Shown: piece after piece, positions 219 through 58,497 of the stretch
Position numbering within the stretch: the first letter of the stretch is position 1
Layout of the letters: each line of letters opens with the position of its first letter
Assembly (NCBI GenBank): GCA_964386765.1
Contig: CAYLUC010000005.1
Coordinates: forward strand, 3,201-67,200
Reading direction: 5' to 3'
Length of the DNA stretch: 64,000 nt
Origin: an uncultured Candidatus Poseidoniales archaeon
Lineage (GTDB): Archaea; Thermoplasmatota; Poseidoniia; Poseidoniales; Thalassarchaeaceae
Program-made: the position numbers and the translations under genes
Notes under the pieces: model-generated
What the model was told of the DNA's origin: nothing
The model's input: only the letters and a program-made list of their open reading frames with translations
Databases searched by the model: none

Positions 219-237
219 CGCACCTCTATGAGGTGCG
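219..237 (+). promoter_or_regulatory. C-TAN-G triloop hairpin (copy 1) covering the SD of the downstream gene
   Basis: CGCACCTC-TAT-GAGGTGCG, perfect 8-bp inverted repeat; SD GAGGTG (230-235) lies in the 3' arm; ATG at 241. Confidence 0.65.
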
Positions 238-240
238 AAC

Positions 241-3200
241 ATGAACAGTAGCAGCGTTAGGGTGATTCACCGTGCGCCGCATTCTCCCAATTCAGGCAGC
301 ATTTTGGTAGTGATGATACTCCTTTTGCCATTGTTCTCACCGATATCCAGCGTCAACGCGGAGGCTAGGATCGAAGCTCAGGACTTTCAGATACTGGATG
401 ACCTGTCCGATGTTCTGGGCCAACGGCAAGATGTGCTGGACTCCAACTCTGTTGGGCAGATAGCAGGGCCCGCATTGGATGCAGTCAGAGATGGCATTTC
501 CGACAGTGGACCCAGTCAACCACTATCCTCGATAGGGGAGTCATTAGTCGACTCCTCGATGACCGACACGTCCCCTCCCTCACCTGATCACCCCCTTCCG
601 TACAATGTTATTTTGGGGATAGACGACGGGGAGACAGCCCCAGTCGACAATGTATGGCAGACCCTTGTGAATATCACCGATTACGTCATCCTAACCGAAT
701 ACACTGACCTGAATGGAAACATAATCAGGAACACCGAGGTGGTGACATTCACTGCAAACTTCCTCTCCCTACTAAACTTCCAGACAGACCCCCTAAGCCA
801 CGCCGTGGACGTCGACAATGACGGGGACGATGACATTCAGGTCGGGCTTGGGATATCTCTGGGCCCAATAGGTCTGGACAATATCATCTCAGAGTCTGGG
901 ACACTGTGGATTCAGCCTGCGATTACATACAGGGTAGACGTCCTCGACTCTAGCACCACAGACCCAATGTGGGATGAAGTGGACACTCTGCAAGTATCGC
1001 TGATCAAGGCATTTGCATACTCTAGCCCAGACTCCATACTAGCCCTTGGCGATGGCGAGAGCTATATCTGGGTAGTCGACTCATCATTCAACTCAATGCC
1101 AAAAGAGTTCTCTCTGGAGGTCGGTATTGAGAGGGTGTTCTTCAACGCCAGTGCGGTGATGCAGGACCTTGTCCAGGCGATTTTGAATATATTCTCATCC
1201 AATTTCGATGGAACCGGAATGACCCTGATTGGAATCTCAGCCCCATACTCAATATCGGTCGACTCGAGTAATATGGACACTTGCCCAGATAGGTACACCC
1301 CCGACCAACTCCTCTTCCTACCTTCTGACGAGATAGACTGCGGGGTTTCCGTTGGTTTGGGCTATGCCCATTTTTCTCCACCGGGATCAGATCAAGTAAG
1401 GGATTTGTGGGAACTGGCATACATCGATCTAGACATTCACCCGAACAAGGACTCGATGGTGATTCCCGGGGACTTGGAGGTGATAATCAGGACAGACAGT
1501 ACACTACCAGCCGCCGGCGGCATAGAGGGAGACAGGAGCCTAACCACTGTGGAGTACTTCGCAGACAGAAGGGCCGATCTGCACATCCGCTTCTACGAGG
1601 ATCGCTCAAACACCCCCCCTGAGGACAACGGGGGTTCATCTGGCAATATCACTGATGGTAGAGGTTGGCTGAGGGGAATGCCCGAGGGCTCAATGTCTTC
1701 CGGTGAGATAACCAGGATTTTCAGGATGCTTGGCTCAGAAGATGAACCCGAATTGCCAGGGGGGAGGCCTAGTCGTCTCGGCATGATTCTTGGAATCAAG
1801 AATTTCTCACGTGATACCAGCCCCAACGAGGATGACCCTTCCCTTCCCGTGAACCCAGCACACCCCCCAATCAGCATGATTCTACTCAGGTCAGAACAGG
1901 CGATCGACTCTTTGGAATATGTGTCGTGGTTCCAGAGGGGCGGACAGTCGGATGACCATAGGAGAGTGAGCATCTCCTTGGACTCAATACCTCCCGCACT
2001 GGTTCTTTTCGGCTCATTCGATGTAGGCGGATCAGAGGATGATAACACAGACCTAGATGACTCGGATAACTTGGATTTCGTTTCAAGGATAATGGACTCG
2101 CTTATTCTGAACTTAGTCGATCTTTACTTGGATGTTGGCTCGACCCTAAATGACGTACCGTCCACCGTTGTAGATGCGATTACAGGTGGCGTTGGGTCAG
2201 GAGGGGACCTGCAGGGCAGGGAGTTCAATCTCCTAATGCATGACCACTGGGGAGCTCAGAGAGAGCCTATGATAATCTCCAGGATAGGGATGGAAATAGG
2301 ATCAAGCCAACATCCAGTATTGGTCGGCGATCACCTACTCCTAGCAAATGACAGATCGCTAACCCAAGTGGTCAGCAGGTCGGGAGCCCTAGTCGATCCG
2401 CTAGTCCCGATAGCAGCTAGCATAAGCTTCAGTGGACTTTCAGCATTCACTCTTGACGATGATGACGATCTCGAAGAGCTGACGGTACACATAAGCACAG
2501 TATCTTCCGAGACGTTCAATTTCATGTATCTCGAACATGATGAGGGGACAATCTCAAACTCTTCCCACCAGGCACTCTCAATTTCTGACATCCCGGATGA
2601 CATTGACATATTCCTAACTGCAGACGGCGCCGAGTACCTGGCATCCAGCTCCATCGAATCGATAACCTATACTGGAATAGATGCAGATCAGAGACAGGCA
2701 GTAAGGATATCCGACTTCCCAGACCAATTCTCCTCTGAATTCGGCAGCTCGTCTAGCTGGTCCTCGACCTCATCGATAGGGAGCATAGAGGCGCAGATCA
2801 CAAACTCCTCGACACCCGTAACAATGGGAGGGGACCATTTCCTGTTCCATCACGATCCCAATGACGGGACTTCGACGATATCATCTAGGATTTCAGGAAT
2901 TTCCGATGCCGGTTGGACTGCTCCTGCGGAGGAAGGCGCCTCGGGTTCCGCGGGGAGGGGCACGGCATCGATATCAGCTGCAGGCGACAGGTCCCTGAGC
3001 ATCAGTGTGGATCATGCACCAACCACCGATGAGGAGCAACTCACAGCAATTGCAGTAATCGATCCCCTGCCTTCCTCTGTATCCATAGAAATCCCCACTG
3101 GGGCGGAATCCGGTCCAACCCTCGACGTCCCCGAACTAAATACCTCGATGGGACTCTCCGGTCTAGCATTCTTCCTCGGAGGATTTGCCGACTTGGGCCG

Positions 3201-4623
3201 TTCAGTAAACTCCGTGCTCTCGGGCATTACCACTGACATCTCCACTGGCTCGGGCGGGAGCAGTGGTGACGAGGACTTCTCGTTCGGAATGCAGCTGGAG
3301 GCAGATTCCGCATTCGATCTAATCGTAGAATCGAGTCACGGCTCCGGCTCCCTGGTTTCCCCTCCTTGGGTACATGGAGTCTCCTTCAATGCGGCCTCCT
3401 CCGGCATATCAGATGGATTCCACCTCAGAACATGGCTTCCAGGGCTTCCCCCAGTGGTCGACATGTCAATATCAAGAAGCTCAGGAACGGACACCGAGGA
3501 CTGGGACATCAGACTGGGCCTAGAGGGGTGGGTCCCCGCTCATAGCGAGTTGATGATTTACGCCCAGGGAATTAACGGGCAGGACCTGCTTATGACACTC
3601 AATGGACTTGAGCCCGGGGTAGAGACCGGCCTCCTGGTCGAATCAATATTCGAGTTCACGACTGTTGCGGGAATCACAGAGGTATCTACGTCGACTCACT
3701 ACTCGATGACAGACAGACTTGATTGGGTCCACGCCCTTCTGATCAACAGAGAAGCCGGCAGCAGGACAGAGATAATGATCGACGAGATACCCGAGACCGT
3801 CGATTTCACTGCTAGTCTGGGAACTGCCGTCTCCATCGACATGACAGTGCCAGACATCTACCTCAGAGAGGGAGTAGGAATCGAGTCGATAATGATGCAA
3901 CAGATGCAGTGGCTGGACTCCTCCTGGTGGCCTGCGACAGTCTTCCTGACAGACCTTCCCGGCTCAATCAACCTCACCACGGAGCCGGACCCCAATTTCG
4001 ACATCACCAAGAGCCTAGCATTCCAAGGAATGCCCATACTGGACTTCAGTGCCTCAAGTGAGGGAATGTCACTCTACATAGAAGCATTCGGCAGGGCGAT
4101 AAACACACGAGGGGACACGATACTCCTAGCTGAGGGGATGACAGACAGCCTAGTAATTAGGCCAACTGAGGGATACGGGCTTGAGGTTAGATCAGGCGGA
4201 GATGGAGTTGACAGGATATACATCAGGTCCAGTAACGTACCAGCCACCCCCCCTGTTACCATGGAGGAGATGGAGGCCCTGGGGGAGGACCTCAAGAGCG
4301 CCACCATTCACGTGCACGAATTCGGGAGAGCCTACGGAGTCATCGAGATCTCCGATGTGCAGGGGGGGAGAATAATAGTTTCAGCACGCGCATCCGCAGA
4401 ACTAGGGGGCGAGACCTTTGACTTGAGGGGGGTCCTGCTGGACGCTCAAACCACATCGGGCATTCCAACAGCCACAACGCTGGGCGTCAACGGACTCGCC
4501 TCTGACCTTTCGCTACTCAACATGATTCCAGGCTTCGATGGACCAACTCATCACATAATGGTGGTAGAGCCGATCTCGTCCGGGATCCTCACCCTCGTAG
4601 CGACTTTCATTGGAGGTGACTGA
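241..4623 (+). CDS. Very large (1460 aa) acidic secreted/membrane-anchored protein of unknown function with a recurring phi-x-(D/S)-x-(L/I)P-x-x-phi-x-phi motif
   Basis: Long ORF; SD GAGGTG 5 nt before ATG; hydrophobic N-terminal signal/TM (ILVVMILLLPLFSP); DVDNDGDDD Ca-binding-like motif; hydrophobic C-terminus. No family recognised. Confidence 0.8.
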   Translation: MNSSSVRVIHRAPHSPNSGSILVVMILLLPLFSPISSVNAEARIEAQDFQILDDLSDVLGQRQDVLDSNSVGQIAGPALDAVRDGISDSGPSQPLSSIGESLVDSSMTDTSPPSPDHPLPYNVILGIDDGETAPVDNVWQTLVNITDYVILTEYTDLNGNIIRNTEVVTFTANFLSLLNFQTDPLSHAVDVDNDGDDDIQVGLGISLGPIGLDNIISESGTLWIQPAITYRVDVLDSSTTDPMWDEVDTLQVSLIKAFAYSSPDSILALGDGESYIWVVDSSFNSMPKEFSLEVGIERVFFNASAVMQDLVQAILNIFSSNFDGTGMTLIGISAPYSISVDSSNMDTCPDRYTPDQLLFLPSDEIDCGVSVGLGYAHFSPPGSDQVRDLWELAYIDLDIHPNKDSMVIPGDLEVIIRTDSTLPAAGGIEGDRSLTTVEYFADRRADLHIRFYEDRSNTPPEDNGGSSGNITDGRGWLRGMPEGSMSSGEITRIFRMLGSEDEPELPGGRPSRLGMILGIKNFSRDTSPNEDDPSLPVNPAHPPISMILLRSEQAIDSLEYVSWFQRGGQSDDHRRVSISLDSIPPALVLFGSFDVGGSEDDNTDLDDSDNLDFVSRIMDSLILNLVDLYLDVGSTLNDVPSTVVDAITGGVGSGGDLQGREFNLLMHDHWGAQREPMIISRIGMEIGSSQHPVLVGDHLLLANDRSLTQVVSRSGALVDPLVPIAASISFSGLSAFTLDDDDDLEELTVHISTVSSETFNFMYLEHDEGTISNSSHQALSISDIPDDIDIFLTADGAEYLASSSIESITYTGIDADQRQAVRISDFPDQFSSEFGSSSSWSSTSSIGSIEAQITNSSTPVTMGGDHFLFHHDPNDGTSTISSRISGISDAGWTAPAEEGASGSAGRGTASISAAGDRSLSISVDHAPTTDEEQLTAIAVIDPLPSSVSIEIPTGAESGPTLDVPELNTSMGLSGLAFFLGGFADLGRSVNSVLSGITTDISTGSGGSSGDEDFSFGMQLEADSAFDLIVESSHGSGSLVSPPWVHGVSFNAASSGISDGFHLRTWLPGLPPVVDMSISRSSGTDTEDWDIRLGLEGWVPAHSELMIYAQGINGQDLLMTLNGLEPGVETGLLVESIFEFTTVAGITEVSTSTHYSMTDRLDWVHALLINREAGSRTEIMIDEIPETVDFTASLGTAVSIDMTVPDIYLREGVGIESIMMQQMQWLDSSWWPATVFLTDLPGSINLTTEPDPNFDITKSLAFQGMPILDFSASSEGMSLYIEAFGRAINTRGDTILLAEGMTDSLVIRPTEGYGLEVRSGGDGVDRIYIRSSNVPATPPVTMEEMEALGEDLKSATIHVHEFGRAYGVIEISDVQGGRIIVSARASAELGGETFDLRGVLLDAQTTSGIPTATTLGVNGLASDLSLLNMIPGFDGPTHHIMVVEPISSGILTLVATFIGGD

Positions 4624-5187
4624 ATGGGACTTCTAGAGAGGATGAAAAAGAAGGAGGAAAGTGAGGAAACTCCAGAGGAAGAATTAGCCCACGAGGCATT
4701 GGAGTATTTCGAGGACAAACTAAGTGAAGTCTCCCCAACAAGGGTACTTTTCGCCTCAATCGCGGCACTGTTGGTCATTTCCGCATCCCTGATAGTAGTA
4801 GCTTGGGTAGTCCCATATGACAGAGTGTCTGTCGATGTGGTCTACAGGCAGGGGGCCGCGGGGCACGTCGTTCTAGCACAGATCAACAATGAAGGCAGCA
4901 GGTCGATAGAGGAAGTATCCCTTGACATCAGATTCCTTGATTCTGAGGGGATCGTCGAGATTGATCGCGCGCACTACGACGTCGACGTGATTACTGCTCA
5001 CACCTCGGTTGCCGGTGATGAACTAGAGCTCATTGTACCCGGGGTTTCTGTATGGGATAACTACACCATAGAGATAATTCTGAGCTATGATAACTATCGA
5101 AACGGGGTCTATATGAAGCAGCCCTACTCAGTCGGTGAGTGGACTATGGAGCTGTTCACAGTCAAATCCCCCCTCAAGATTCTCTGA
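4624..5187 (+). CDS. Single-TM membrane protein with a small beta-sandwich (Ig/CARDB-like) domain
   Basis: Acidic N-terminus, TM (VLFASIAALLVISASLIVVAWVV), then VLAQINNEGSRSIEEVSLDIRFLD; SD GGAGGTGA upstream; ATG abuts previous stop. Confidence 0.7.
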   Translation: MGLLERMKKKEESEETPEEELAHEALEYFEDKLSEVSPTRVLFASIAALLVISASLIVVAWVVPYDRVSVDVVYRQGAAGHVVLAQINNEGSRSIEEVSLDIRFLDSEGIVEIDRAHYDVDVITAHTSVAGDELELIVPGVSVWDNYTIEIILSYDNYRNGVYMKQPYSVGEWTMELFTVKSPLKIL

Positions 5188-5256
5188 ACAAAGATGACTG
5201 AAGTGATGTTCAGTTAACCCATATGCTCAAAATGGTCCTGACAGGGGGCGAGTTCG

Positions 5257-9753: not shown

Positions 9754-9775
9754 GCGCGACCCTAAGGGGTCGCGT
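9754..9775 (+). promoter_or_regulatory. C-TAN-G triloop hairpin (copy 2, one bulged G), followed by a weaker TAG-loop hairpin at 9784-9797
   Basis: GCGCGACCC-TAA-GGG(G)TCGCGT starts 3 nt after the S8 stop; then GCCCT-TAG-AGGG(G)C overlapping the likely SD of the next gene. Confidence 0.55.
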
Positions 9776-9803
9776 GGTGCGAAGCCCTTAGAGGGGCGGT
9801 CTA

Positions 9804-12509
9804 GTGCGAAATGCGATGAAGCCAAACAATTCAGCAAGTCTGATAGTGGCGCTACTCGTCCTGAGCCTCTCATCACCACTGGTTTCAGCGGATGTAGACA
9901 TCTCGCTTTCTGCAAATCCCATGACGGCCGAGGCAACAACAGACGATGCCGCTGAATACGACATCGTGATACAGAATTCTGGAGACGACGATGCCTTGGT
10001 CTCCCTAAGCACACAGCAGGGAAATGACTGCAATGGATTCACGTCAACATTGGAATCAACAACCGTTACAGTAGACTCTGGCTCATCTGAAACCGTCAAA
10101 CTAACGGTTTCTGTCTCAGACCAGGCCAACGGAGAATGCGAAACCACCGTCAATGCACAGGGACAGGTATCTGGCGGCATACCGGGAACAGGCTCGAGTG
10201 ACGATGTCACTGTAACTACGACCGCTGGAGACGGAGGGGGTCTTTACTCCGTCAAACTGTCTACTGACGATCCACTCACTAGGAATTACGACGGAGAGGA
10301 TGATGAGGTAACTTGGGAAGTGGACGTCGAGAACAACGGCGAACAACAGGCGAATGTGCAGTTGGAGATGACTTCAGACAGTGATTGCGAGTCCGATGAC
10401 CTGTCAGCCACTGTGGATCCGGCCATCCTCCAGCTGGAGCCAGAAGATGAGGAGTCAGTCACTGTAACAGTCGATATGCCCAATGGGGCTGAGACAGAGG
10501 CAGGCTCCCATTGCTTCATCCTGAGGGCAACCGTAACTAACGACCCCAATGCCGCGGATCAGGCCGAGGATAACCTGACATTGAGCCTAAACGTCCCGGA
10601 GATAAAGGAATGCGAGGCATCACTCCAATTCAGCTCCCACAGCCTCGATCCAGGGGAGTCAGCATCAAACTCATTCGACGTTGAGAACATAGGGAACACG
10701 GAATGGACAGTTACAGCAAACGCACAAGCCCAGGACGGGCATGACATTTCTGGATGGGTAAACTTCGACAGCCCAAAGAGCAAGATGCTCGCGGAGCCCG
10801 GAAGTTCCGATGACTCCCATACATTCACCTTCGACGTAACGCCGGACGACTCTCTAGAAGCAGGGACTCAGATTGCAATAAATATCCAAGGAAGGGCGGG
10901 AACAGCAGTCGGCTGCGAGAAGGTACTCACAGTTACTGTCGGACAAGAGTTCGGTGCATCGATGACACTGAGCAAATCCACCCTCTCGAATGTTGACCCA
11001 GGCTCCTCAGGCTCCCTCTCAATTCAGATTACCAACGAGGGCAATGGACAGGATACCATGGCAATAGGCGCAAACGGACTCCCCCCTGGATGGCAGGTTT
11101 CTCTTTCCCAGTCTTCCGTCACCCTCGGGAGCGCCCAGTCCTCTAACAACAAGCAGACAATATCAGCGGATGTGCTGGTTCCCAATGACGCTAGTGCTGA
11201 GAGTGATGTTGTAATCACTTTCACAGTCGGTAGAGGAGGGGGAACCGAGCCTTATGCCACTAGGGATCTCACAGTCTCAGTTGCAGCCCGACATTCTGTA
11301 ACCACATCATTGGTTTCCGACCAACAGACAGGCCGTTCAGGGCAAATTGTTCAATTCCCCATAGAGGTGACAAACTCAGGAAACATTCAGGACACGTTCA
11401 GATTGCAGGCATGTGATCCCGGTGACATGACTGGTTGTAGCAGTCCGATGTGGGAATCGTCCTTCTCGGATACTAATGGTAACTCAATCACGCAGGTGGT
11501 CCTTGATCCGGGTCAGAAACAAACCGTCTATCTTGATGTCCTGGTGGAGGGGGAGGAAGATGCAGATTCCGCCAAGGTCCTAGCAAGAGTTGCTATTTAT
11601 GGAACCTCGGAAGTAGACGAGCACACAGTAACAGTCGTTGTCTCAAACTACAACTACGGGATGGCAATATCACCTCAGAATCCAGGGGAGGTACCAAGCC
11701 AGATAGACGTGATCCTTCCCCCGGGTGGCACGCTTTCCACCTTCTTCTGGGTAGAGAATACAGGGGACTACCCAGCTGGGGATACTGCCGTGATTACCAT
11801 CTCTGGAATGGACTCGTCAGTCATCAGGCAAATGTTTGTGGAAGGGGTGCAGATTGATGGCACGATTCAGATCGCCAAGGGAGAGAGAGTACTTGTCGAG
11901 GTACAAATGGAAGTCCTCGAGGGAGTCGCGAATGGGGTCTCTGGGATAATCAAGGTAAACGCCGCCTCCGAGAGGAACGCGGCCCAGACTACCACAGTGG
12001 ATGTAATAATCCAAGTGATGACCATTCACGATCTTAGATTCACATTGGAGAGTTCGTCCGAACAGACGGCCAACTATCCAGAGAAACTCTACTTCTCGCT
12101 TTTCGTAACCAACCACGGAAACATCGTTGAGGAGGTCGAGATACTGTCAAGCGACTCTCTAAGGGGTTGGACGGTTGACGTGGTGGAGGACGAGTTCGAT
12201 CTTCAGCCCGGAGAAACGAGGGAGATTGAGGTCAGAGTAACACCTCCCTCAGAAATGATTGATGATGATACCTACAGGTTCACCATTACAGTTCAGCCAA
12301 AGGGAATACCAGTGGCAGGCCAACCAATCGAACTGAAGGTCACATCCAAGGTTTCGAACCCCTTCCTAAACTTGTCAGATGAGGTCGAAGAGGCACTCGT
12401 CTATGGCCTGACTGGGTTGGGGACATTGCTAGTGGTAGTCCTCTTCTTCCGCTCGAGGGCAGAAAACAGAATGATACGAAAGGCCCTCGAAGAAGAGGAC
12501 GAATCCTAG
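9804..12509 (+). CDS. Secreted Ig-like repeat protein (COG1470/NEW3-CARDB-like) with C-terminal TM anchor
   Basis: Signal peptide; about 7 modules with (V/I)xNxG[N/D]xxD and LxPGE motifs; paired Cys in several modules; TM LVYGLTGLGTLLVVVLFF. Start GTG 9804 or ATG 9816. Confidence 0.85.
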   Translation: MRNAMKPNNSASLIVALLVLSLSSPLVSADVDISLSANPMTAEATTDDAAEYDIVIQNSGDDDALVSLSTQQGNDCNGFTSTLESTTVTVDSGSSETVKLTVSVSDQANGECETTVNAQGQVSGGIPGTGSSDDVTVTTTAGDGGGLYSVKLSTDDPLTRNYDGEDDEVTWEVDVENNGEQQANVQLEMTSDSDCESDDLSATVDPAILQLEPEDEESVTVTVDMPNGAETEAGSHCFILRATVTNDPNAADQAEDNLTLSLNVPEIKECEASLQFSSHSLDPGESASNSFDVENIGNTEWTVTANAQAQDGHDISGWVNFDSPKSKMLAEPGSSDDSHTFTFDVTPDDSLEAGTQIAINIQGRAGTAVGCEKVLTVTVGQEFGASMTLSKSTLSNVDPGSSGSLSIQITNEGNGQDTMAIGANGLPPGWQVSLSQSSVTLGSAQSSNNKQTISADVLVPNDASAESDVVITFTVGRGGGTEPYATRDLTVSVAARHSVTTSLVSDQQTGRSGQIVQFPIEVTNSGNIQDTFRLQACDPGDMTGCSSPMWESSFSDTNGNSITQVVLDPGQKQTVYLDVLVEGEEDADSAKVLARVAIYGTSEVDEHTVTVVVSNYNYGMAISPQNPGEVPSQIDVILPPGGTLSTFFWVENTGDYPAGDTAVITISGMDSSVIRQMFVEGVQIDGTIQIAKGERVLVEVQMEVLEGVANGVSGIIKVNAASERNAAQTTTVDVIIQVMTIHDLRFTLESSSEQTANYPEKLYFSLFVTNHGNIVEEVEILSSDSLRGWTVDVVEDEFDLQPGETREIEVRVTPPSEMIDDDTYRFTITVQPKGIPVAGQPIELKVTSKVSNPFLNLSDEVEEALVYGLTGLGTLLVVVLFFRSRAENRMIRKALEEEDES

Positions 12510-12540
12510 CCGCCATCCTGAGTTCTTACCGGATAGGCTT

Positions 12541-12564
12541 ATTGCCCAATTTCAGGTGGGCAAT
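12541..12564. promoter_or_regulatory. Perfect 8-bp inverted repeat upstream of the nuo operon (candidate operator or hairpin)
   Basis: ATTGCCCA-N8-TGGGCAAT, overlapping an AT-rich CTTATTG stretch that could be the TATA box. Confidence 0.45.
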
Positions 12565-12565
12565 G

Positions 12566-12590
12566 CTGTCGGTCCCTACGGGACCGTCAG
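12566..12590 (+). promoter_or_regulatory. C-TAN-G triloop hairpin (copy 3) in the nuoA leader
   Basis: CTG-T-CGGTCCC-TAC-GGGACCG-T-CAG; core 12570-12586 is a perfect 7-bp stem; the outer arm overlaps the SD AGGTG before ATG 12600. Confidence 0.65.
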
Positions 12591-12599: not shown

Positions 12600-13046
12600 A
12601 TGTCGACAGTCCCGGAGGACTATCTAGCAGTGGCTGTAATGGCCCTAGTGGGCATCGGATTCCCTGTAATGAGCTTCATCGCATCGGGCTTCCTTAGGCC
12701 CAGAAAGACTGGTAACGACCCAAAGAAATTGAGCTCATGGCTTCTGCCAGGTTACGAGAGTGACCAGTCACTCTACATCCGTAGAGACAGCACATATGAG
12801 TGCGGAGCGGACCCTGTAGGGGACGCCCACATCAACTTCCACTTCCAATACTACTGGTATGCGATAATCTTCCTCGTCTTCGACATCGCATTCATGTTCA
12901 TGGCATTCGGGGGTGTCGTGGCGATACAAGAAGGAGTGGAATTGAGCGGGATCTATAGCGCACTCGCAACACTCACTGCATTCATCGTCCTGATGGGGCT
13001 AGGGGTATGGCATGTATTCCGAAAGAGAGGAAGAATATACATCTGA
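12600..13046 (+). CDS. nuoA: Complex I-like oxidoreductase subunit A
   Basis: YECG loop, YYWYAIIFLVFDI motif, 3 TMs; ATG 12600 preferred over GTG 12591 (SD AGGTG). Confidence 0.95.
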   Translation: MSTVPEDYLAVAVMALVGIGFPVMSFIASGFLRPRKTGNDPKKLSSWLLPGYESDQSLYIRRDSTYECGADPVGDAHINFHFQYYWYAIIFLVFDIAFMFMAFGGVVAIQEGVELSGIYSALATLTAFIVLMGLGVWHVFRKRGRIYI

Positions 13047-27949: not shown

Positions 27950-27968
27950 CCGACATCTACGATGTCGG
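27950..27968 (+). promoter_or_regulatory. C-TAN-G triloop hairpin (copy 4) between the DUF63 gene and the MCC/liu genes
   Basis: CCGACATC-TAC-GATGTCGG, perfect 8 bp, starts 3 nt after the upstream TGA. Confidence 0.65.
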
Positions 27969-28014
27969 CTCCATTCAATTGAAGTCCCACACTCCCTCTG
28001 CGTGTTTGAGAGAA

Positions 28015-32520: not shown

Positions 32521-32561
32521 TACGGGCCCGGGTTAATATCTCCCCTCATCATCGGACAATT

Positions 32562-33149
32562 GTGGACGAGGCCAGCTTAATCATTGCAGCATTCATGGGC
32601 ATCAGCCTAGCTGCAGCCTCAGGATTCCGGGTCTTCCTCCCTCCATTCATCCTGTCATTAGCGGTCAGGGCCGATTTTATCGATATCGATTTGGTAGGAA
32701 CACAATTCGAGTTCTTCACTTCCACCCCATCGATAATACTCCTAGGAATCGCCACAATCGCTGAATTTGCAGCATACTACGCTCCTTGGATAGACAGCCT
32801 TCTGGATGCCATAGCTACACCAGCAGCAGTAATTGCTGGAATAGGTGTTACCGCAATCTCTCTGGAGGGGAGCGAGCCAGTCGTCCAGTGGGCAATTGCA
32901 ATAATCGCTGGAGGGGGGATGTCTGCGACCATCCAGTCAGCCACTGTCGCCACCCGTGGAATCAGCTCAACCTTCACCCTGGGTGTGGCCAATCCAGTGG
33001 TGGCCACGGGAGAGAACGTAGCCAGCGTGGCACTCACGATTATCGCAATACTGGCCCCAATTCTCGCAATACTATTAGCAGCCATCCTCGCACTACTCCT
33101 GATTAGGCGAAGAATCACGAAGAGCAGCCAATCCATGGAAACCGATTAG
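32562..33149 (+). CDS. DUF4126-family membrane protein
   Basis: GISLAAASGFRVFLP, AEFAAYYAPWIDSLLD, NPVVATGENV motifs. Confidence 0.85.
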   Translation: MDEASLIIAAFMGISLAAASGFRVFLPPFILSLAVRADFIDIDLVGTQFEFFTSTPSIILLGIATIAEFAAYYAPWIDSLLDAIATPAAVIAGIGVTAISLEGSEPVVQWAIAIIAGGGMSATIQSATVATRGISSTFTLGVANPVVATGENVASVALTIIAILAPILAILLAAILALLLIRRRITKSSQSMETD

Positions 33150-49981: not shown

Positions 49982-50096
49982 GATAAATTCTACCCGGTAA
50001 AACCAAAAAACCCCCAATAGAGCCTCAGTGAAGCGTTTACTCCCCAATAACTTCATTATCTCTCTAGAGCCCCAAAACAGCGGAGGTATTGCAAAA

Positions 50097-50360: not shown

Positions 50361-50390
50361 TTGGGTCTAGCCAATTTCAGAATAACGTAA

Positions 50391-50420
50391 ACCCCTTGGT
50401 CGGGTGACTGGCCGTGGGGT
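50391..50420 (+). other. GNRA-capped RNA hairpin in the MC1 3' region / MC1-sdhB convergent gap
   Basis: ACCCC-TT-GGTCGG-GTGA-CTGGCC-GT-GGGGT; G-U pairs work only on the + strand. Confidence 0.45.
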
Positions 50421-50471
50421 ATCCATAACGCCGCTCTGGCGCATAGCTAATTCTTCATATTCAGAGAGTAA

Positions 50472-51230: not shown

Positions 51231-51240
51231 TCAATCACTC

Positions 51241-53957: not shown

Positions 53958-53962
53958 AGTAC

Positions 53963-53981
53963 CCCGGCCCTTAGGGCCGGG
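53963..53981 (-). promoter_or_regulatory. C-TAN-G triloop hairpin (copy 5) in the sdh operon leader
   Basis: On the minus strand CCCGGCCC-TAA-GGGCCGGG, perfect 8 bp, ends 5 nt before ATG 53957; the GGGGT SD-like run starts in the 3' arm. Confidence 0.65.
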
Positions 53982-54043
53982 AGGCTCTCCTTAAGCAATT
54001 GCTTTATCCTATATTCCAAATCCTCAAGGTTTAAGCGGGCCTT

Positions 54044-54166
54044 ATGCCAGAATCATTCGTGCTAGGGGGGGACATCGAATCGTCAATATGCCTGAAGTGC
54101 GGGCACATGCCGGGGGCATGGCTACCGGGTCTGCCTTGCTCAGTCTGCGGGGAGCCATTCCTCTGA
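54044..54166 (+). CDS. 40-aa zinc-finger microprotein (CxxC-x12-CxxC), missed by the ORF track
   Basis: Hand translation: MPESFVLGGDIESSICLKCGHMPGAWLPGLPCSVCGEPFL*; fills the sdhC-ALDH gap; stop 1 nt from the ALDH stop. Confidence 0.7.
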   Translation: MPESFVLGGDIESSICLKCGHMPGAWLPGLPCSVCGEPFL

Positions 54167-54167
54167 A

Positions 54168-55796
54168 TCAGGCTAGGCCCGCATAATCGGCATCCGCTTC
54201 TTCCATCTCTATTTCGTCTACATCCATTTGTGCCAGTTGCAACTTTCCGGATAGTTCGTCATTAACGGCATGCCAGTATGAATATGCCTCAATCACCCAA
54301 ATTCCCGACTCTCGTGTTCCGTTGCCACTGCCTTTGACGCCACCGAATGGCAAGTGGGCCTCAGCACCAGTCGTTGAGTTGTTTATTCCGGTCATCCCGG
54401 CCTTTATTCCAGTCTTGTAGCGGTAGGCCTCTAGCCGATCATTCGTGTAAATTGCCGACGAAAGTCCGTATGGGCTGGCATTAGCGAGATGTAGTGCGTG
54501 ATCGAAGTCACGCGCTTTGACTACAGTGACTACCGGTCCGAAAATCTCCTCGTGGAAGCACTCCATATCTTCGGTGACGTCAGTGTAGACGTGTGGCCAC
54601 ATGTACACTCCCTCACTAGCATCTCCGTGGAAATTCTCGGGCTTGTTGTCATTCGTTATTCGGCCTTCTCCCCATATCTTCGTCGCACCACTGGCCTCAC
54701 ACATCTCAATTCCCTTGAGGAAATCAACCGCGTACTTCTCTGAAAGCATGGATCCATAGAGGACATCATCCTCTCGCATAGAGTCGCCGATTTTTGTTGA
54801 CTTTACCTTGGACATCAACTTCTCCACGAACTCGTCATAGATGTCTTCGTGAACGATCAGATTACCAAGACTCGTGCAACGCTGCCCCGCAGTTCCGAAG
54901 CCCGCCCAGTAGGCACCTTCCACCGCATTTTCCATGTTTGCCGATGGCATGATCACCAGTGGGTTCTTTCCGCCCAATTCAAGACTGGCGCTTACTAGGT
55001 TACGCCCACATACTTCACCTATCATTTTCCCCACTGCTGTACTTCCCGTGAAAGATATCTTGTTTACCATTCCTAGATCAACAGCGTCAACTAGGTGCTG
55101 TCCGGCACCGCTTCCCTTGCCGTGGACTAGGTTGATAACTCCATCAGGCAATCCCGCTTCATGCATTATCCTAGCGAGGGCAAAAGATAGGAGGGGGGAG
55201 TCTTGGGGGGACTTCCACACACATGTATTGCCGCACATTATTGCGGGAATCATCTTCCAGAAAGGAACTGCCGAGGGGAAGTTGCAAGCGTTGATGATGC
55301 CACATACTCCCAGGGGGCGCCGATAAGTGAAAAGTTCCTTGTCAGGTAACTCTGAGTTGACAGTTTGTCCGTAGAGGCGCCGCCCCTCGGACTGGAAGAA
55401 TAAGCATGTGTCTATCGCTTCCTGAACCTCACCCCCGCATTCCTTGAGAGTCTTGCCTATTTCACGAGCCTGTAGGCGAACAAGGTCCTCCTTGCGTTCC
55501 ATCAGGAGACGGCCCATATTGCCAATCACTTGTCCACGAGTTGGAGCGGGTGTAGCTGACCAACCGGGAAAAGCAGCCCGAGCCGCTTCCAGTGCCTCAT
55601 GAACATCCCTTTCATTCGAGAGTGGGAACTCTCCCAGACAGTCTTCTAGCCAGGCTGGATTGATGCTTTCAAAGCTAGAACCGCTACTTGACTGAGCTAA
55701 CTTGCCCGCGATAATGTTGTAGCCTCTGATCGAGGGGCTCCCGTTTGGGTTTGCTCTGTCTATCGTCTCAAAACCTGTTTCCAGCACATGGGTCAT
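54168..55796 (-). CDS. NAD(P)-dependent aldehyde dehydrogenase
   Basis: INACNFP, WKSP, FTGSTAVG, LELGGKNP, GQRCTS (catalytic Cys), EEIFGPV, PFGGVKGSG motifs. Confidence 0.96.
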   Translation of the reverse strand: MTHVLETGFETIDRANPNGSPSIRGYNIIAGKLAQSSSGSSFESINPAWLEDCLGEFPLSNERDVHEALEAARAAFPGWSATPAPTRGQVIGNMGRLLMERKEDLVRLQAREIGKTLKECGGEVQEAIDTCLFFQSEGRRLYGQTVNSELPDKELFTYRRPLGVCGIINACNFPSAVPFWKMIPAIMCGNTCVWKSPQDSPLLSFALARIMHEAGLPDGVINLVHGKGSGAGQHLVDAVDLGMVNKISFTGSTAVGKMIGEVCGRNLVSASLELGGKNPLVIMPSANMENAVEGAYWAGFGTAGQRCTSLGNLIVHEDIYDEFVEKLMSKVKSTKIGDSMREDDVLYGSMLSEKYAVDFLKGIEMCEASGATKIWGEGRITNDNKPENFHGDASEGVYMWPHVYTDVTEDMECFHEEIFGPVVTVVKARDFDHALHLANASPYGLSSAIYTNDRLEAYRYKTGIKAGMTGINNSTTGAEAHLPFGGVKGSGNGTRESGIWVIEAYSYWHAVNDELSGKLQLAQMDVDEIEMEEADADYAGLA

Positions 55797-55939
55797 GGTA
55801 TACGCGAATCAATACCCTGACATGAATGCTACTCATCGAACCTCCTTGTTCTGATAACTAATAGGGGCGATTTGACACTCGTTGATTGGTGGGTTTAACA
55901 ACCCCCGTGACCGAGAGACGTTTGTTAGGAGACGACGCC

Positions 55940-58165
55940 ATGACCGCAGACTCATCAGATTCACTCACGCTAAGAGTAGCTAAGGCCATACCAAGCGACG
56001 TCGGCCACGGGCGCGCAAGAGTTCCATTCGACAATGACCTAAATCTCAAGCCAGGGGATATCATTGAGATATCCGGAGAGAGAAAGACTGCTGCTATAGT
56101 CTGGAGGTGTAGGCCAGAGGATGCAAATCTGGGAGTGATAAGAGTTGATGGAATTATTCGCAAGAATGCCGGCGTCAGTCTGGGGGACAGAGTTGGCATA
56201 TCGAAAGTAGAAACCCAACCATGTGACAGATTGGTTCTGAGCCCAGTTATGGCGAAACAGCAGAAGGTAAGGTTCGGACCGGGGATAGAGGGCTTCGCAC
56301 GTAGGGGCCTGAACAAGAGGCCGGTGGTTGCAGGAGACAGGATATTCATTCCGGGAATGACACTTTTCGCCGAGGCCCTCCCATTTGCTATAGTGTCCAC
56401 AAAACCAAAGGGAATTGTCCAGGTCCTTCCAGACACTGAGATTGTCATTAAGGAAGATCCAGTTGACGAGGAAGACTCGGGAGACATTCTAGATATCTCT
56501 TATGAGGACATAGGAGGACTCGGAGACCAACTTCAGAAGGTCAGGGAGATGATAGAACTCCCTCTTAAGCATCCAATATTGTTCACGAGGCTAGGCATAG
56601 ACCCTCCGAGGGGTGTCCTGCTCCATGGCCCCCCGGGTACCGGTAAGACACTAATTGCCAAGGCAGTAGCTTCTGAGACAAACGCGCACTTCACGTCAAT
56701 CAACGGTCCGGAAATAATCTCCAAGTACTATGGTGAGAGTGAAAAGCAGCTTCGTGAGATATTTGATGAGGCGGCCGCAAACGCCCCTGCAATTATCTTC
56801 ATCGATGAGCTAGATAGCATAGCACCCAAGCGAGAAGACGTTAGCGGGGAAGTCGAAAGAAGGGTCGTCGCGCAGCTGCTGACATTACTAGACGGGATGC
56901 AGGGAAGAGACAATGTGGTCGTTATTGGAGCGACGAACAGGCAAGATGCAATCGATCCCGCCCTCAGAAGGCCAGGGAGATTTGATCGCGAGATAGAGAT
57001 AGGCGTTCCTGACAAGAATGGCCGTGCTGAGATTATCGGAATTCACACCAGAGGTATGCCAATCAGCGATGATTTCGACTTAGATTGGCTATTGGACAAT
57101 ACACACGGTTTCGTAGGAGCAGATATCTCAGCCCTAGTAAGGGAGTCTGCAATGAAGGCACTTAGGAGATACCTGCCAGAGATAGATCTCGACGAGGAGC
57201 AAATACCCCCCGAGGTACTTGAGAAGATGGCCGTGATAATGCCGGATTTCAGAATGGCAATCAAAGAAATCGAACCCAGCGCCCTGAGGGAGATCTACCT
57301 AGAGGTTCCAGAAGTATCGTGGGAGGAAGTAGGGGGCCTTGAGGAGATAAAGGACAGACTCAAGGAAAGTATCGAATGGCCCCTGACAAAGCCAGAAATG
57401 TTCGAACATTTCGGGATTAACCCTCCAAGGGGAATAGTCCTCTTCGGAGCACCAGGTACTGGCAAGACCCTACTTGCCAAGGCCATAGCCAATGAGGCAA
57501 AGGCCAATTTCATAACAATCAAGGGACCTGAATTAATTTCCAAGTGGGTGGGCGAATCCGAGAAGGCCGTTAGAGAGGTATTCAAGAAAGCCAAGCAATC
57601 CAGCCCCTCAATAATTTTCTTAGATGAGTTCGAGAGCATCGCCGGAATGCGTCGCTCAAGCTCCGGCGATGGCTCAGACGTCATGAACAGGGTCGTAAAC
57701 CAACTCCTCAGCAGCATGGATGGTGTTGAGGGAATGGAGGGAGTAATCGTAGTGGCGGCAACGAATAGGCCAGAAATGATTGATCCTGCACTACTTCGTA
57801 GTGGGCGCTTCGAGAGGGTCCTTCATGTGCCTCCACCGGATCCAGAGGCACTCAAGTCAATACTCAAGATACACACTGCTGACATGCCCATAGGGAGGTT
57901 CTCTATGGATGACATAGCAGCTAAGCTTGAGAATTACACCGGTGCTGATATTGAGGCCGTTTGCAGAGAGGCAGGACTGATCGCCATGAGGGCCGAGAAG
58001 AAGACAGTAACAAAGAAGCATTTCGAAGAGGCAGTAGAGAGGGTCCGTCCCACCGTCACCGACGAAATGATGCTATATTACAATCGAATGGAGTCACTTC
58101 TAACAAGTGGCCTTCAGTCAGTAAGGAGGCTACCAGACAGCCTCGCTGGAATCGAGTCAGTGTGA
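55940..58165 (+). CDS. cdc48: Cdc48/VCP-family AAA+ ATPase
   Basis: N domain, D1 [15 protein letters not shown]2 [14 protein letters not shown], two SRH motifs; ATG 55940 with SD AGGAG. Confidence 0.97.
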
Positions 58166-58174
58166 GGTGGTAAG

Positions 58175-58417
58175 TTGCCGACAACCTTCGGTAAGGAGCT
58201 GCTTGGGAGGGACGTTGTAGATGATTCCAACGACAAATTGGGAACGATGGCTGATTTCAGAATTGACATCGACACGGGGGATGTGGTGGCCTTCCTGGTT
58301 TCAATCGAGCAAGGAATTGACCCCGCATTTCTTCCTTGGCCAACTGTAGAGGGACTCCTCTCGGTACCTGTCGGCGAAGTGGCCAGTATAGGGTCTGCCA
58401 TACAACTTTCCCGTTGA
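58175..58417 (+). CDS. PRC-barrel domain protein (CdpB-like)
   Basis: LLGRDVVDDSNDKLGTMADFRIDIDTG...VPVGEVASIG; TTG start with SD GAGGTG. Confidence 0.85.
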   Translation: MPTTFGKELLGRDVVDDSNDKLGTMADFRIDIDTGDVVAFLVSIEQGIDPAFLPWPTVEGLLSVPVGEVASIGSAIQLSR

Positions 58418-58453
58418 ACTCGTGATGCGCCTGCGTTCATGGCCCCACAACGG

Positions 58454-58461
58454 TATTAATA
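58454..58461 (+). promoter_or_regulatory. Candidate TATA box of the DUF4350-DUF58 unit
   Basis: TATTAATA about 20-27 nt upstream of hairpin copy 6; position inferred, not mapped. Confidence 0.4.
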
Positions 58462-58480
58462 CGGAGTTAAGGCTCGATGG

Positions 58481-58497
58481 CCATTCCTATGGAATGG
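58481..58497 (+). promoter_or_regulatory. C-TAN-G triloop hairpin (copy 6) overlapping the SD of the DUF4350 gene
   Basis: CCATTCC-TAT-GGAATGG, perfect 7 bp; SD GGAGG (58496-58500) begins in the 3' arm; ATG 58508. Confidence 0.65.

Follow-up and report, generated by a model that had tools for sequence, protein, structure and literature searches.

Perfect short-loop hairpins as a conserved class in the intergenic gaps of Poseidoniales archaea

The six hairpins described here, all from one 64-kb stretch of a Poseidoniales genome (64,000 nucleotides, hereafter the window), are real, far more frequent than chance predicts, and conserved across marine group II archaea. They belong to a class of short G+C-rich perfect palindromes scattered in the promoter-bearing gaps between genes. 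An initial annotation of the window had proposed a family of elements defined by structure, and such a class does exist: it is enriched between genes, kept at orthologous sites, and maintains its pairing while its arms change. We tentatively favor, as the best explanation, that the hairpins act as RNA stem-loops at cistron boundaries. All six match the annotated sequences and positions.

219-237, forward strand: hairpin 1, CGCACCTC-TAT-GAGGTGCG, 8 bp, predicted RNA energy -13.8 kcal/mol
9754-9775, forward strand: hairpin 2, GCGCGACCC-TAAG-GGGTCGCGT, 9 bp with a tetraloop in the best predicted fold
12570-12586, forward strand: hairpin 3, CGGTCCC-TAC-GGGACCG, 7 bp, from the window sequence and 49 orthologous sequences
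27950-27968, forward strand: hairpin 4, CCGACATC-TAC-GATGTCGG, 8 bp, from the window sequence and orthologs
53963-53981, reverse strand: hairpin 5, CCCGGCCC-TAA-GGGCCGGG, 8 bp (9 with a U.G pair), from the window sequence and orthologs
58481-58497, forward strand: hairpin 6, CCATTCC-TAT-GGAATGG, 7 bp, from the window sequence and orthologs

Exhaustive counting across the window gave 10 perfect triloop hairpins of at least 7 bp, five intergenic and five coding. Read on the strand of the gene that follows, all five intergenic hairpins are C-TAN-G; the coding loops are CCG, CAG, AAA, ACA and GGG. In 100 dinucleotide-preserving shuffles of the window, 64 kb contained on average 4.4 triloop hairpins and 0.12 C-TAN/NTA-G hairpins, so that five perfect 7-8 bp triloops in 2.19 kb of intergenic DNA compare with 0.15 expected (Poisson P for at least five, 6e-7). 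C-TA hairpins of at least 7 bp are found between genes only, with coding DNA at background level. The six stems are mutually unrelated; no half-site is repeated within the window, and no stem reappears there or at non-orthologous positions of the related loci. Searching the whole window on both strands with cmscan gave no Rfam match, in line with the initial annotation, which knew of no matching family, and literature searches for a described hairpin family in Poseidoniales or archaea returned nothing relevant. The annotated gene identities were right for NuoA/NuoB, for the carboxyltransferase, enoyl-CoA hydratase and biotin carboxylase, for DUF4350 and DUF58, for the Ig-like repeats, and for SdhA/SdhB behind the 299-aa gene; the 1460-aa protein has no Pfam match.

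Across 160 related Poseidoniales loci (2.7 Mb), such hairpins are again commoner between genes, and coding DNA stays at background. Intergenic enrichment, at 3-7 fold, is confined to triloops (0.71 per kb intergenic vs 0.11 coding) and tetraloops (0.34 vs 0.10), and hairpins with loops of 5-8 nt are equally dense in intergenic and coding DNA. The enriched hairpins are dominated by C..G-closed loops containing TA, which make up 28% of unique intergenic triloops and 20% of tetraloops with stems of at least 6 bp, compared to about 3% expected. A thermodynamically favored loop was considered as the source of this preference and is not supported: classic extra-stable loops of the GNRA and UNCG types are nearly absent from these loci (one GAAA, one UACG, no UUCG), so stability alone fails to explain the loop. 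We found no values for C(UAN)G in the triloop-stability literature. At orthologous sites, hairpins persist before the nuoA, sdhC-like, DUF4350 and 1460-aa genes, and also after the S8-peptidase and DUF63 genes.

Comparison of orthologous sites also revealed conserved, promoter-like boxes near every hairpin, and these define where the palindromes lie.

203-218, forward strand: BRE/TATA-like conserved box GGGCAATACCCTTTAG; T/A hexamer beginning 28-29 nt ahead of the 1460-aa gene's ATG
9780-9797, forward strand: conserved box CGAAGCCCTTAGAGGGGC, putative promoter of the Ig-repeat gene, from ortholog comparison
12531-12559, forward strand: two conserved promoter-like blocks, GGATAGGCTTATTGCC and AATTTCAGGTGG, before nuoA; either could be the TATA box
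27971-27984, forward strand: conserved box CCATTCAATTGAAG, at a constant 43-45 nt before the mccB start in about 40 orthologs
53989-54004, reverse strand: conserved palindromic box AAGCAATTGCTTAAGG (GATGCAATCCCTTATGG in relatives) before the sdhC-like gene, from ortholog comparison
54044-54167, forward strand: small conserved Zn-ribbon ORF of 40 aa, divergent from the sdhC-like gene
58451-58476, forward strand: conserved promoter-like blocks CGGTATTAATACGG (GGTCTTAAGAC in relatives) and GAGTTAAGGCTCG before DUF4350, from ortholog comparison

Hairpins 2 and 4 both begin 3 nt past the stop codon of the upstream gene, as had been annotated. They had also been described as standing in front of the first gene of a module, and this description does not survive: each follows the upstream stop and precedes the next gene's conserved promoter box, and being upstream of that promoter they are not leaders. 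Hairpin 2 follows the S8-peptidase gene and ends 12 nt before the CTTAGA hexamer of the Ig-repeat promoter box. The C of this hexamer is always 29 nt before the Ig-repeat ATG at 9816, where gene callers also place the start; this constant distance and the lack of a Shine-Dalgarno (SD) sequence suggest that the gene is leaderless. The Ig-repeat promoter box itself is predicted to be able to fold as a short UA-loop hairpin. Among orthologs of hairpin 2 the arms CGCGACCC/GGGTCGCG are invariant, while the loop reads TAAG, TAA, TTA, AAG, TACA, TATG, TATA, TAAT, CTA or TACG; relatives carry a perfect triloop of TAA or TTA, and in locus L133 the site is a perfect palindrome with no spacer. Hairpin 4 follows DUF63 and stops 2 nt short of the promoter box of mccB, the true mccB start being ATG 28015 (MDRLPTRVD). 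Its orthologs show a compensatory change from CGACATC to CGATATC, an outer pair that is C-G, U-A or A-U, and loops of TAC, TAT and ATA.

The other four hairpins lie closer to a start codon. Hairpin 1 is placed between its T/A box and ATG 241 of the 1460-aa secreted protein. Its orthologs, collected through protein homologs (none was found in viral contigs), keep the arms invariant over 57-100% amino acid identity with loops of TAT, TTT, TTA, TGA and ACA. In seven of them, including the hairpin-less L172, CTTTAG, CTATAG, CTAAAT or CATATA stands at a constant distance from the ATG, a spacing the same as that of the box of the leaderless Ig-repeat gene. Hairpin 3 is extended by an outer CUG/CAG helix to 12566-12590 (predicted -22.6 kcal/mol), begins 33 nt after the T/A hexamer of the first nuoA block, and ends 13 nt before the nuoA ATG at 12600, with AGGTG 3 nt past the stem. 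Its arms are invariant in the 49 orthologous sequences, with loops of TAC, TAA, TAAG, GTA, TTA, TCA, GAA, TTC and TTT. Hairpin 5 ends 5 nt before the sdhC-like ATG (53957). The box of this gene lies 40-47 nt before the ATG with or without a hairpin; orthologous arms include CCGGCCC, CGTGCCC, GAACCCC, CGCCCCC, CGACCCC and GAGTCCC, and loops include TAA, TTA, GTA, ATA, TAT, TAC and AAA as well as tetraloops. Before DUF4350 (ATG at 58508), the distal block is kept in all orthologs and the hairpin begins 27-30 nt after its T/A hexamer. Here the arms vary among CCATTCC, CCGTTCC, CGTTCC, CACATCC, TGGACC and TAGACC, and the loops among TAT, TAC, GTA, ATA and TTA.

The initial annotation correctly noted G-rich, SD-like strings inside or adjoining the 3' arms of hairpins 1, 5 and 6. 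Sequestration of such a string in the stem is, however, not a general feature. Only hairpin 1 pairs a ribosome-binding-like GAGGTG, in its 3' arm, and its reading as an SD is doubtful because the distance from T/A box to ATG is leaderless in seven orthologs. At hairpins 3, 5 and 6 the string lies beyond the stem or shares 2-4 nt with it (for example, GGAGGA overlaps the 3' arm of hairpin 6), and hairpins 2 and 4 have none. In hairpins 3, 5 and 6 and their orthologs, a G-rich SD-like string lies 0-3 nt from the 3' arm. A bistable alternative fold pairing the start codon at hairpin 6 occurs in the window sequence and not in orthologs, and was treated as chance.

The loop does not behave as a fixed code. 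The annotated rule of an invariant TAN loop was contradicted by orthologs that carry TTT, AAA, TCA, TGA, GAA, TTC, ACA, AAG and 4-nt loops, although its weaker form stands, in that most loops are C..G-closed and contain TA. The claim that the loop reads TAN only on the sense strand fared no better. A six-of-six count on that strand has p = 0.03 under a coin flip and fails in relatives: the loop is inverted (GTA, ATA or TTA) in many orthologs, including the closest relative compared (98% identical CDC48), and a TTA/TAA polymorphism occurs within one population. Also abandoned is the suggested respiration/catabolism regulon, since no two sites share arms, the target genes are unrelated, and in relatives such hairpins stand at other genes. 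These results bear directly on the model first proposed, in which a dedicated RNA-binding protein or endonuclease reads C(UAN)G on the sense strand to co-regulate or process operons. The excess of TA loops over expectation, the scarcity of classic extra-stable loops, and the retention of TA after flips while the third base varies are in its favor. We nevertheless consider it quite unlikely, given that four of the six families include loops that lack TA, UAN and NUA loops swap freely even between near-identical genomes, two copies would lie outside the downstream gene's transcript as judged from the promoter boxes, the target genes share no function, and no candidate protein was identified. The loop TA as a transcription initiator was rejected as well: families differ by more than 25 nt in the distance from T/A box to loop, and the distance from loop to predicted transcription start site (TSS) ranges from -17 to +12.

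What is retained is complementarity. The arms are always perfect Watson-Crick. Half-sites are invariant in the families of hairpins 1, 2 and 3, and in the DUF4350, sdhC-like and partly the hairpin 4 families they vary yet remain complementary, with 8, 5 and 2 pairs changing on both sides in these three. The proposed check for covariation in orthologous leaders was borne out in these families, with scores of 0.74, 0.68 and 0.23 exceeding all 500 shuffles (0.20, 0.17 and 0.08) and all slid controls (0.00-0.16), in rows selected for the hairpin; as the sequences behind the pair counts were chosen for having a hairpin, the percentage paired is inflated. Predicted RNA folding gave z = -3.6 to -5.2 for hairpins 1, 3 and 4. 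Because complementarity is kept while arm sequence, loop length and loop orientation change, what matters, judging by these comparisons, is intramolecular pairing and not the recognition of a given sequence in duplex DNA by a protein.

The main form of that second reading is a set of operators for dimeric transcription factors, with half-sites of 7-8 bp and a 3-bp spacer bound on duplex DNA, as repressor sites between TATA and start (hairpins 1, 3, 5 and 6) or activator sites upstream of BRE/TATA (hairpins 2 and 4). N3-spaced palindromes are typical of archaeal operators such as those of SurR (GTT-N3-AAC) and TrmB (TACT-N3-AGTA). Like these, our inverted repeats have a 3-bp spacer and are fixed around BRE/TATA or start within each family, and three families combine invariant arms with a free spacer over 57-100% protein identity; a symmetric dimer would not distinguish a rotated spacer, so that loop flips would be neutral for it. 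Unlike SurR and TrmB sites, the palindromes differ in their arms from site to site, with no half-site repeated in the window, and are perfectly self-complementary over 7-9 bp even at positions that vary among orthologs. Moreover, close relatives show repeated changes in the sdhC and DUF4350 arms, and spacers at one site measure 0, 3 or 4 nt (hairpin 2 family) or 3 and 4 nt (nuoA and sdhC families), with 3-4 nt spacers alone enriched. Triloops and tetraloops at the same site are harmless for a hairpin and bad for a dimeric DNA-binding protein. We judge operators to be a rather unlikely account.

Changes in both arms could also arise without selection on RNA, since template switching in DNA palindromes is also able to produce varying complementary arms. 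Loop inversion and the spacer-less palindrome are the signature of such concerted evolution, which could mimic covariation, and the spacers of inverted repeats are mutation-prone (PMC13155455). In its strongest form, this explanation holds that the palindromes are largely non-adaptive, made and corrected by replication template switching, surviving only in unconstrained intergenic spacers, with loops drifting toward A/T. It would account for perfect arms, for changes on both sides with G.U pairs essentially absent from the 7-8 bp cores (pairs 1-7), for loops inverting within one population, and for variable positions relative to functional signals. Hairpin-less orthologs retain the same promoter geometry, and no further C-TA hairpin was present in 13 kb of flanking DNA from the same genome, which agrees with the 1.2 expected from window density but lends the class no added support. 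Conversely, the arms of hairpins 1, 2 and 3 are 100% conserved across the order beside loops and an adjacent 3-10 nt that have diverged, which argues for purifying selection. Neutral palindromes, being deletion-prone, would be expected to be lost; the enrichment is 5-40 fold over shuffled and coding DNA, and neither the C..G closure nor the TA bias is predicted. A mainly neutral origin appears unlikely. The outer helix pairs give mixed indications: on the sense strand, the nuoA and DUF4350 leaders show G.U to A.C ratios of 27:4 each compared to about 80:61 in slid controls, the sdhC family shows no such bias, and in the hairpin 4 family it is reversed.

A further interpretation places the structure in DNA, as a hairpin or cruciform near the TSS that modulates promoter opening or is bound by a structure-specific protein. 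The copies occupy positions from about -78 to +21 relative to the conserved promoter boxes. If the proximal boxes are used, four palindromes fall within the interval from -25 to +9 around the predicted start, and the class is strand-symmetric, with C..G closure, a self-complementary TA step, tolerated flips and Watson-Crick cores free of G.U. G+C-rich arms around a TA centre favor cruciform extrusion, but arms of 7-8 bp are shorter than is normal for extrusion in vivo. Hairpins 2 and 4 and several relatives are 35-80 bp upstream of the start, the distance from loop to predicted TSS is as variable as noted above, and a G+C-rich melted region would weaken the promoters of respiratory operons. 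A DNA-level structure seems rather improbable. Promoter geometry also limits the RNA readings. The TATA-to-start spacer is taken up by the palindrome in the hairpin 1 family, as it may also be in the sdhC family depending on the reading, and there the palindrome would lie outside the gene's own mRNA. If the distal boxes are used, hairpins 3 and 6 and the MGIIa sdhC hairpins begin about -3 to +6 nt from the predicted mRNA 5' end; by this geometry a 5'-terminal stem would be allowed for hairpins 3 and 6 and not for hairpins 1, 2 and 4. Among the contents of PMC5069720 is a table of MGII TSSs.

Transcript data bear on termination. In locus L122, which is well covered, RNA contigs from three metatranscriptomes tile without interruption and at steady depth from the gene before nuoA, through the hairpin, into nuoA; these are assembled contigs, which break at population variants and carry no read ends, and DNA contamination is possible. 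This continuity indicates that the nuoA hairpin is part of read-through RNA rather than a point of termination. RNA coverage was almost nil in the runs containing the window, and at most 14% of sampled 31-mers were covered for L025. The location of hairpins 2 and 4 just past stop codons would suit transcription terminators of the upstream genes, and a few relatives have a T-run after the hairpin (for example, CAGGCC-TAC-GGCCTG-TTTTTT at L004 21608). Archaeal intrinsic termination, however, depends on oligo-T, and no T-run of at least 3 follows any of the six copies (the longest in the next 15 nt is 1-2). Hairpin 5 lies in a divergent region: because the Zn-ribbon ORF is divergent, no co-directional gene lies immediately before it, and the closest one, for an aldehyde dehydrogenase, ends 186 nt upstream. 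Convergent gene pairs, with gaps of 0-3 nt, have no such hairpins, so 3' hairpins are not generally required. We rejected the terminator reading on the missing T-runs and the read-through at nuoA, and regard it as highly improbable.

The stem-loop explanation that we tentatively prefer would work as follows. The class comprises Poseidoniales-wide, G+C-rich perfect inverted repeats of 7-9 bp with a 3-4 nt A/T-rich centre, usually containing TA, between C and G. In a genome with long co-directional gene runs and no oligo-T terminators, these would form stable RNA stem-loops (predicted -12 to -22 kcal/mol) in transcripts that cross gene boundaries, namely short 5' leaders and read-through or polycistronic RNAs, and would serve there as roadblocks and insulators. 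Hairpins 2 and 4 would block 3'-to-5' trimming just behind the stop codon, and hairpins 3, 5, 6 and perhaps 1 would block 5'-to-3' decay or hold the ribosome-binding region in a defined fold. The TA-rich loop would be a strong preference and not a required recognition code, and its bias may partly reflect mutation of DNA palindromes through loop inversion and decay of the single-stranded loop toward A/T. A more specific version, which we think unlikely, is a lineage-specific boundary system in which a dedicated capping protein or nuclease partner fixes the 5' and 3' ends of cistrons from read-through RNA. Such a protein may recognize G+C-rich, C-G-closed stems with a UA-containing tri- or tetraloop.

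Several known systems share parts of this architecture. Bacterial REP/BIME elements are also short G+C-rich intergenic palindromes in many copies per genome, between co-transcribed genes or behind stops, and REPs are thought to act as mRNA 3' stabilizers among other roles. Unlike REP/BIME, which have a consensus sequence, a flanking tetranucleotide and RAYT transposases, the Poseidoniales hairpins have unrelated arms, occupy sites orthologous across the order, and share only architecture and loop bias between sites. Intergenic and 3' inverted repeats of chloroplasts likewise form stem-loops at cistron boundaries in compact, read-through genomes; they define and protect RNA ends rather than terminate transcription, and their loops show small "flip-flop" inversions of the type also present here. 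Chloroplast stems are longer, imperfect and without the C..G/TA bias, the domain of life and the nucleases differ, and the archaeal hairpins are known from sequence. Hairpins 3 and 6 and those of MGIIa sdhC, at the predicted 5' end and followed by a ribosome-binding site, resemble the 5'-terminal stabilizers of ompA, aprE and ermC that protect against RNase E or RNase J, whereas hairpins 1, 2 and 4 do not fit, and the 5' ends here are predicted. Protection by 5' stem-loops has been reviewed (PMC3997798), and archaea have 5'-to-3' beta-CASP exonucleases (PMC3792030). By analogy, the combination of variable stems with a C-G-closed triloop such as UAU or UAC recalls the shape-read constitutive decay elements of Roquin. 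Those are metazoan 3' UTR hairpins with a C-G-closed pyrimidine-purine-pyrimidine triloop; the loops here are not limited to that pattern and flip, and to our knowledge archaea lack the ROQ domain.

Two cautions follow from this work. The evolution of perfect palindromes, through double changes and loop flips, can imitate RNA covariation, and a loop "motif" drawn from one genome window can dissolve on ortholog comparison. In the surface ocean, marine group II archaea rank with the most abundant uncultured microbes, and we know of no experimental work on their gene expression. The conserved intergenic hairpin class, present at the operons of complex I and complex II among others, together with a sequence-inferred promoter geometry that covers leaderless and short-leader genes with conserved boxes, offers concrete, testable handles. 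If a dedicated boundary system does exist, its hairpins would be an archaeal counterpart of the end-defining elements of chloroplasts, with a loop signature resembling Roquin-type triloop recognition.

The intergenic hairpins of the window are real, conserved features and belong among intergenic hairpin elements. Six had been singled out in the initial annotation, which gave their sequences exactly and their gene context correctly:

219-237, plus strand: hairpin 1, before the gene for a 1460-aa protein
9754-9775, plus strand: hairpin 2, before the Ig-repeat gene
12570-12586, plus strand: hairpin 3, before nuoA
27950-27968, plus strand: hairpin 4, between the DUF63 gene and mccB
53963-53981, minus strand: hairpin 5, before the sdhC-like gene
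58481-58497, plus strand: hairpin 6, before the DUF4350 gene

A two-strand census of all perfect hairpins (stem 7 bp or longer, loop 3-8 nt) found ten triloop hairpins in the window, half of them in the 2.19 kb scored as intergenic. Read in the direction of the gene that follows, every intergenic triloop is C-TAN-G; the loops of the five coding hairpins bear no relation to this pattern. When the window was shuffled with its dinucleotides preserved, triloop hairpins came to 4.4 and C-TAN/NTA-G hairpins to 0.12 per 64 kb, and the five intergenic triloops compare with 0.15 expected in 2.19 kb (Poisson probability 6e-7). Hairpin 2 is best described as a UAAG tetraloop on a 9-bp stem. The Rfam search proposed in the initial annotation gave no match anywhere in the window, and no described family matching the class was found in Rfam or in the literature on Poseidoniales and archaea.

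The proteins encoded in the window share 75-98% identity with counterparts from marine group II archaea (Poseidoniales, mostly Thalassarchaeaceae). For comparison, we retrieved 80 genome loci containing the CDC48 gene, covering hairpins 5 and 6, and 80 metagenome loci around the 766-aa NuoL-like protein of the nuo operon, covering hairpins 2, 3 and 4; with the window, these amount to 2.73 Mb. Across this set, perfect hairpins of at least 7 bp occur at 0.71 per kb in intergenic and 0.11 per kb in coding DNA when the loop is 3 nt, at 0.34 and 0.10 when it is 4 nt, and at 0.05-0.09 and 0.06-0.10 when it is 5-8 nt. The commonest intergenic triloops are C-TAC, C-TAT, C-GTA, C-TTA and C-TAA, and the commonest tetraloops C-TAAG, C-TAAA, C-TAGA, C-TATG, C-TATA and C-TACA with their inversions; there are hardly any GNRA or UNCG loops. 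When unique intergenic hairpins with stems of 6 bp or more are counted, 28% of the triloops and 20% of the tetraloops are closed by C and G and have TA at one loop edge, where about 3% is expected. Given this enrichment and loop bias, the class is real and lineage-wide.

In every family, many relatives carry a hairpin at the same place. Orthologs of copy 1 were obtained via protein homologs.

Arms and loops of the hairpins at orthologous sites
Copy 1 family: arms CGCACCTC/GAGGTGCG invariant at 57-100% protein identity; loops TAT, TTT, TTA, TGA, ACA
Copy 2 family: arms invariant; ten different loops of 3-4 nt
nuoA family: arms CGGTCCC/GGGACCG invariant in 49 sequences; loops TAC, TAA, TAAG, GTA, TTA, TCA, GAA, TTC, TTT
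DUF63/mccB family (copy 4): one compensatory change, outer pair variable; loops TAC, TAT, ATA
sdhC-like family: arms change, complementarity always perfect; loops TAA, TTA, GTA, ATA, TAT, TAC, AAA and tetraloops
DUF4350 family: arms change, complementarity always perfect; loops TAT, TAC, GTA, ATA, TTA

At the copy 2 site, locus L133 has a perfect palindrome without any spacer. The fixed loop that had been proposed thus softens to a strong preference for A/T-rich, TA-containing loops, and four of the six families include exceptions. We consider a loop-specific RNA-binding factor, as originally suggested, a doubtful explanation. Nor does the claimed sense-strand orientation hold: many orthologs have NTA on the sense strand, and the window's TAA is TTA in the closest relative fetched (L001, CDC48 98% identical). 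In metatranscriptome contigs from one coastal sample, a T>A polymorphism at position 3704 of locus L122 places TTA and TAA nuoA loops (3703-3705) in one population; small indels upstream of that hairpin (3625-3630) are also polymorphic. TA is its own reverse complement, so that a flipped loop keeps TA on the same strand, displaced by one base, and the C..G closure is likewise strand-symmetric. The hairpins had also been read as hinting at a respiratory and catabolic regulon, but the arms are unique to each site and relatives bear such hairpins at other genes. Both the sequence "code" and the regulatory reading were over-interpreted.

Covariation, which the initial annotation had proposed to examine, exceeded all shuffles in three families. 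As formal pair counts over rows chosen for having a hairpin, scores were 0.74 for sdhC, 0.68 for DUF4350 and 0.23 for copy 4, compared to 0.20, 0.17 and 0.08 in shuffles (none of 500 reached the observed value) and 0.00-0.16 in slid controls. The hairpin cores are essentially without G.U pairs, their arms change by double substitutions and their loops invert. This is the outcome of template-switch correction of DNA palindromes, so the covariation is no proof of selection on RNA. Self-correcting, largely neutral palindromes would account for these three features, and we regard them as an improbable explanation of the class. An alternative of similarly low probability is that the hairpins are transcription-factor operators. 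The invariant arms in three families are also compatible with a protein binding to DNA; however, the arms differ at every site, are perfectly self-complementary even where variable, and are separated by spacers of inconstant length, which makes ordinary dimeric operators unlikely as a general explanation.

The position of the hairpins relative to promoters bears on whether they lie in leaders. For the Ig-repeat gene, the true start codon is ATG 9816; the ORF-based start at 9804 (GTG) is too far upstream. In all relatives, the C of CTTAGA in the box CGAAGyCCTTAGAGGG lies exactly 29 nt before this ATG, and the sequence between is variable and lacks a Shine-Dalgarno (SD) motif. This gene (9780-9816) and the DUF4126 gene (32531-32562) each have just one conserved T/A box, beginning 29-30 nt ahead of the start codon, and no SD, which is the geometry of leaderless promoters. 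The start codon of mccB is ATG 28015, and the box CCATTCAATTGAAG precedes it by a constant 43-45 nt; the ORF-based start at 27979 (TTG) is too far upstream. Hairpins 2 and 4 lie upstream of the Ig-repeat and mccB boxes, and their description as leaders does not stand. For copy 1, a T/A hexamer (CTTTAG, CTATAG, CTAAAT or CATATA) precedes the ATG by 28-29 nt in seven orthologs, one of which lacks the palindrome. Hairpin 1 thus fills the box-to-start spacer, and the SD assigned to it is doubtful, as it may not be transcribed from that promoter.

Several promoters (nuoA, DUF4350 and sdhC) contain two conserved T/A-containing blocks. If the distal block is the TATA box, hairpins 3 and 6 and the MGIIa sdhC hairpins would begin within a few nucleotides of the mRNA 5' end; if the proximal block is, they would straddle the start. 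The MGIIb sdhC family keeps a spacing of 40-47 nt between box and ATG with or without a hairpin, and the end of the stem is always 32 nt downstream of the box. On a scale calibrated on leaderless genes, which puts the start about 29 nt downstream of the hexamer's first base, palindromes fall anywhere from about -78 to +21, positions too variable for the loop TA to be an initiator element, which we rejected. Hairpin or cruciform elements of the DNA itself, situated at promoters, are as improbable in our view as operators.

Other repeats were seen near these promoters:

53989-54004, minus strand: conserved palindromic box before sdhC, AAGCAATTGCTT (GGGATGCAATCCC in relatives), distinct from hairpin 5
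27971-27984, plus strand: conserved palindromic box before mccB, TTCAATTGAA, distinct from hairpin 4
58451-58464, plus strand: conserved palindromic box before the DUF4350 gene, GGTCTTAAGACC-type, distinct from hairpin 6
12541-12564, plus strand: second inverted repeat in the nuoA promoter region, ATTGCCCA-N8-TGGGCAAT
58479-58513, plus strand: alternative fold competing with hairpin 6, GGCCAUUCCU pairing with AGGGGAUGGCC including the start codon (MFE -16.3 kcal/mol)

The three boxes, all strongly conserved, could be TATA/BRE elements or regulator sites. The second nuoA repeat is probably fortuitous, since its right arm is unconserved in relatives; orthologs lack the second complement of the alternative fold. 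Two sdhC loci, L004 (8120 and about 8060) and L008, have a C..G-closed triloop hairpin upstream of the box (loop AAA in L004, ATA in L008) and a hairpin without TA in the box-to-SD spacer (CGATGC-CGTTGA-GCATCG in L004; GATG-CGGA-CATC in L008), whose end-to-box distance is that of the TA hairpin of other relatives.

We tentatively favor the interpretation that the hairpins are RNA stem-loops at cistron boundaries. Enrichment is limited to hairpin-competent spacers, loop length varies at one and the same site, predicted RNA stability is very high (-12 to -22 kcal/mol for the hairpins of the window), and SD-like strings adjoin the 3' arms of copies 3, 5 and 6. Where the helices of the nuoA and DUF4350 leaders extend beyond the core, the sense-strand ratio of G.U to A.C is 27:4 in each, compared to approximately 80:61 in controls. 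In three of four runs, metatranscriptome contigs extend with even coverage from the preceding gene across the nuoA hairpin and on into nuoA, placing this hairpin within read-through RNA as a non-terminating element. As no T-run follows any of the six copies either, terminators are a very improbable explanation. The stem-loops would stop exonucleases or act as insulators of the ribosome-binding region, in a setting that would combine long co-directional gene runs and read-through transcription with an absence of oligo-T terminators.

No hairpins occur at the convergent gene pairs of the window (35468/35472, 39995/39996, 46619/46620, 54167/54168 and 62588/62589). Only 0-3 nt separate their stop codons, so transcript 3' ends must fall within the opposing gene and there is no space for dedicated 3' signals. 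A 40-aa Zn-ribbon ORF (CxxC...CxxC; 54044-54167, plus strand), too short for the ORF list, is conserved in relatives and divergent from the sdhC-like gene; its end lies 1 nt ahead of the convergent aldehyde dehydrogenase gene. Public gene calls for the protein that follows hairpin 1 differ on identical DNA, giving 1460 aa (ATG 241) or 1436 aa (ATG 313, +72 nt); the 1460-aa form has a normal charged n-region ahead of the signal-peptide core. Elsewhere in the same genome, a tRNA-like gene with an apparent intron, recognized by eye, lies 5 kb upstream of the window (locus L165, about 1650-1761) in the 288 nt that separate a 137-aa gene of unknown function from the FtsZ gene, and a cytosine-5 DNA methyltransferase gene (PF00145) lies 6.5 kb past the window end (locus L161, 17694-18863).

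Bacterial REP elements are likewise intergenic G+C-rich palindromes with possible mRNA-stabilizing roles, but they share a consensus, which the Poseidoniales class lacks. Chloroplast inverted-repeat stem-loops are similar in their cistron-boundary position and loop flip-flops, and bacterial 5' stabilizer hairpins also resemble the class; the analogy with the Roquin triloop element is in structure only. For an important uncultured archaeal lineage, the hairpins described here provide specific, testable elements.
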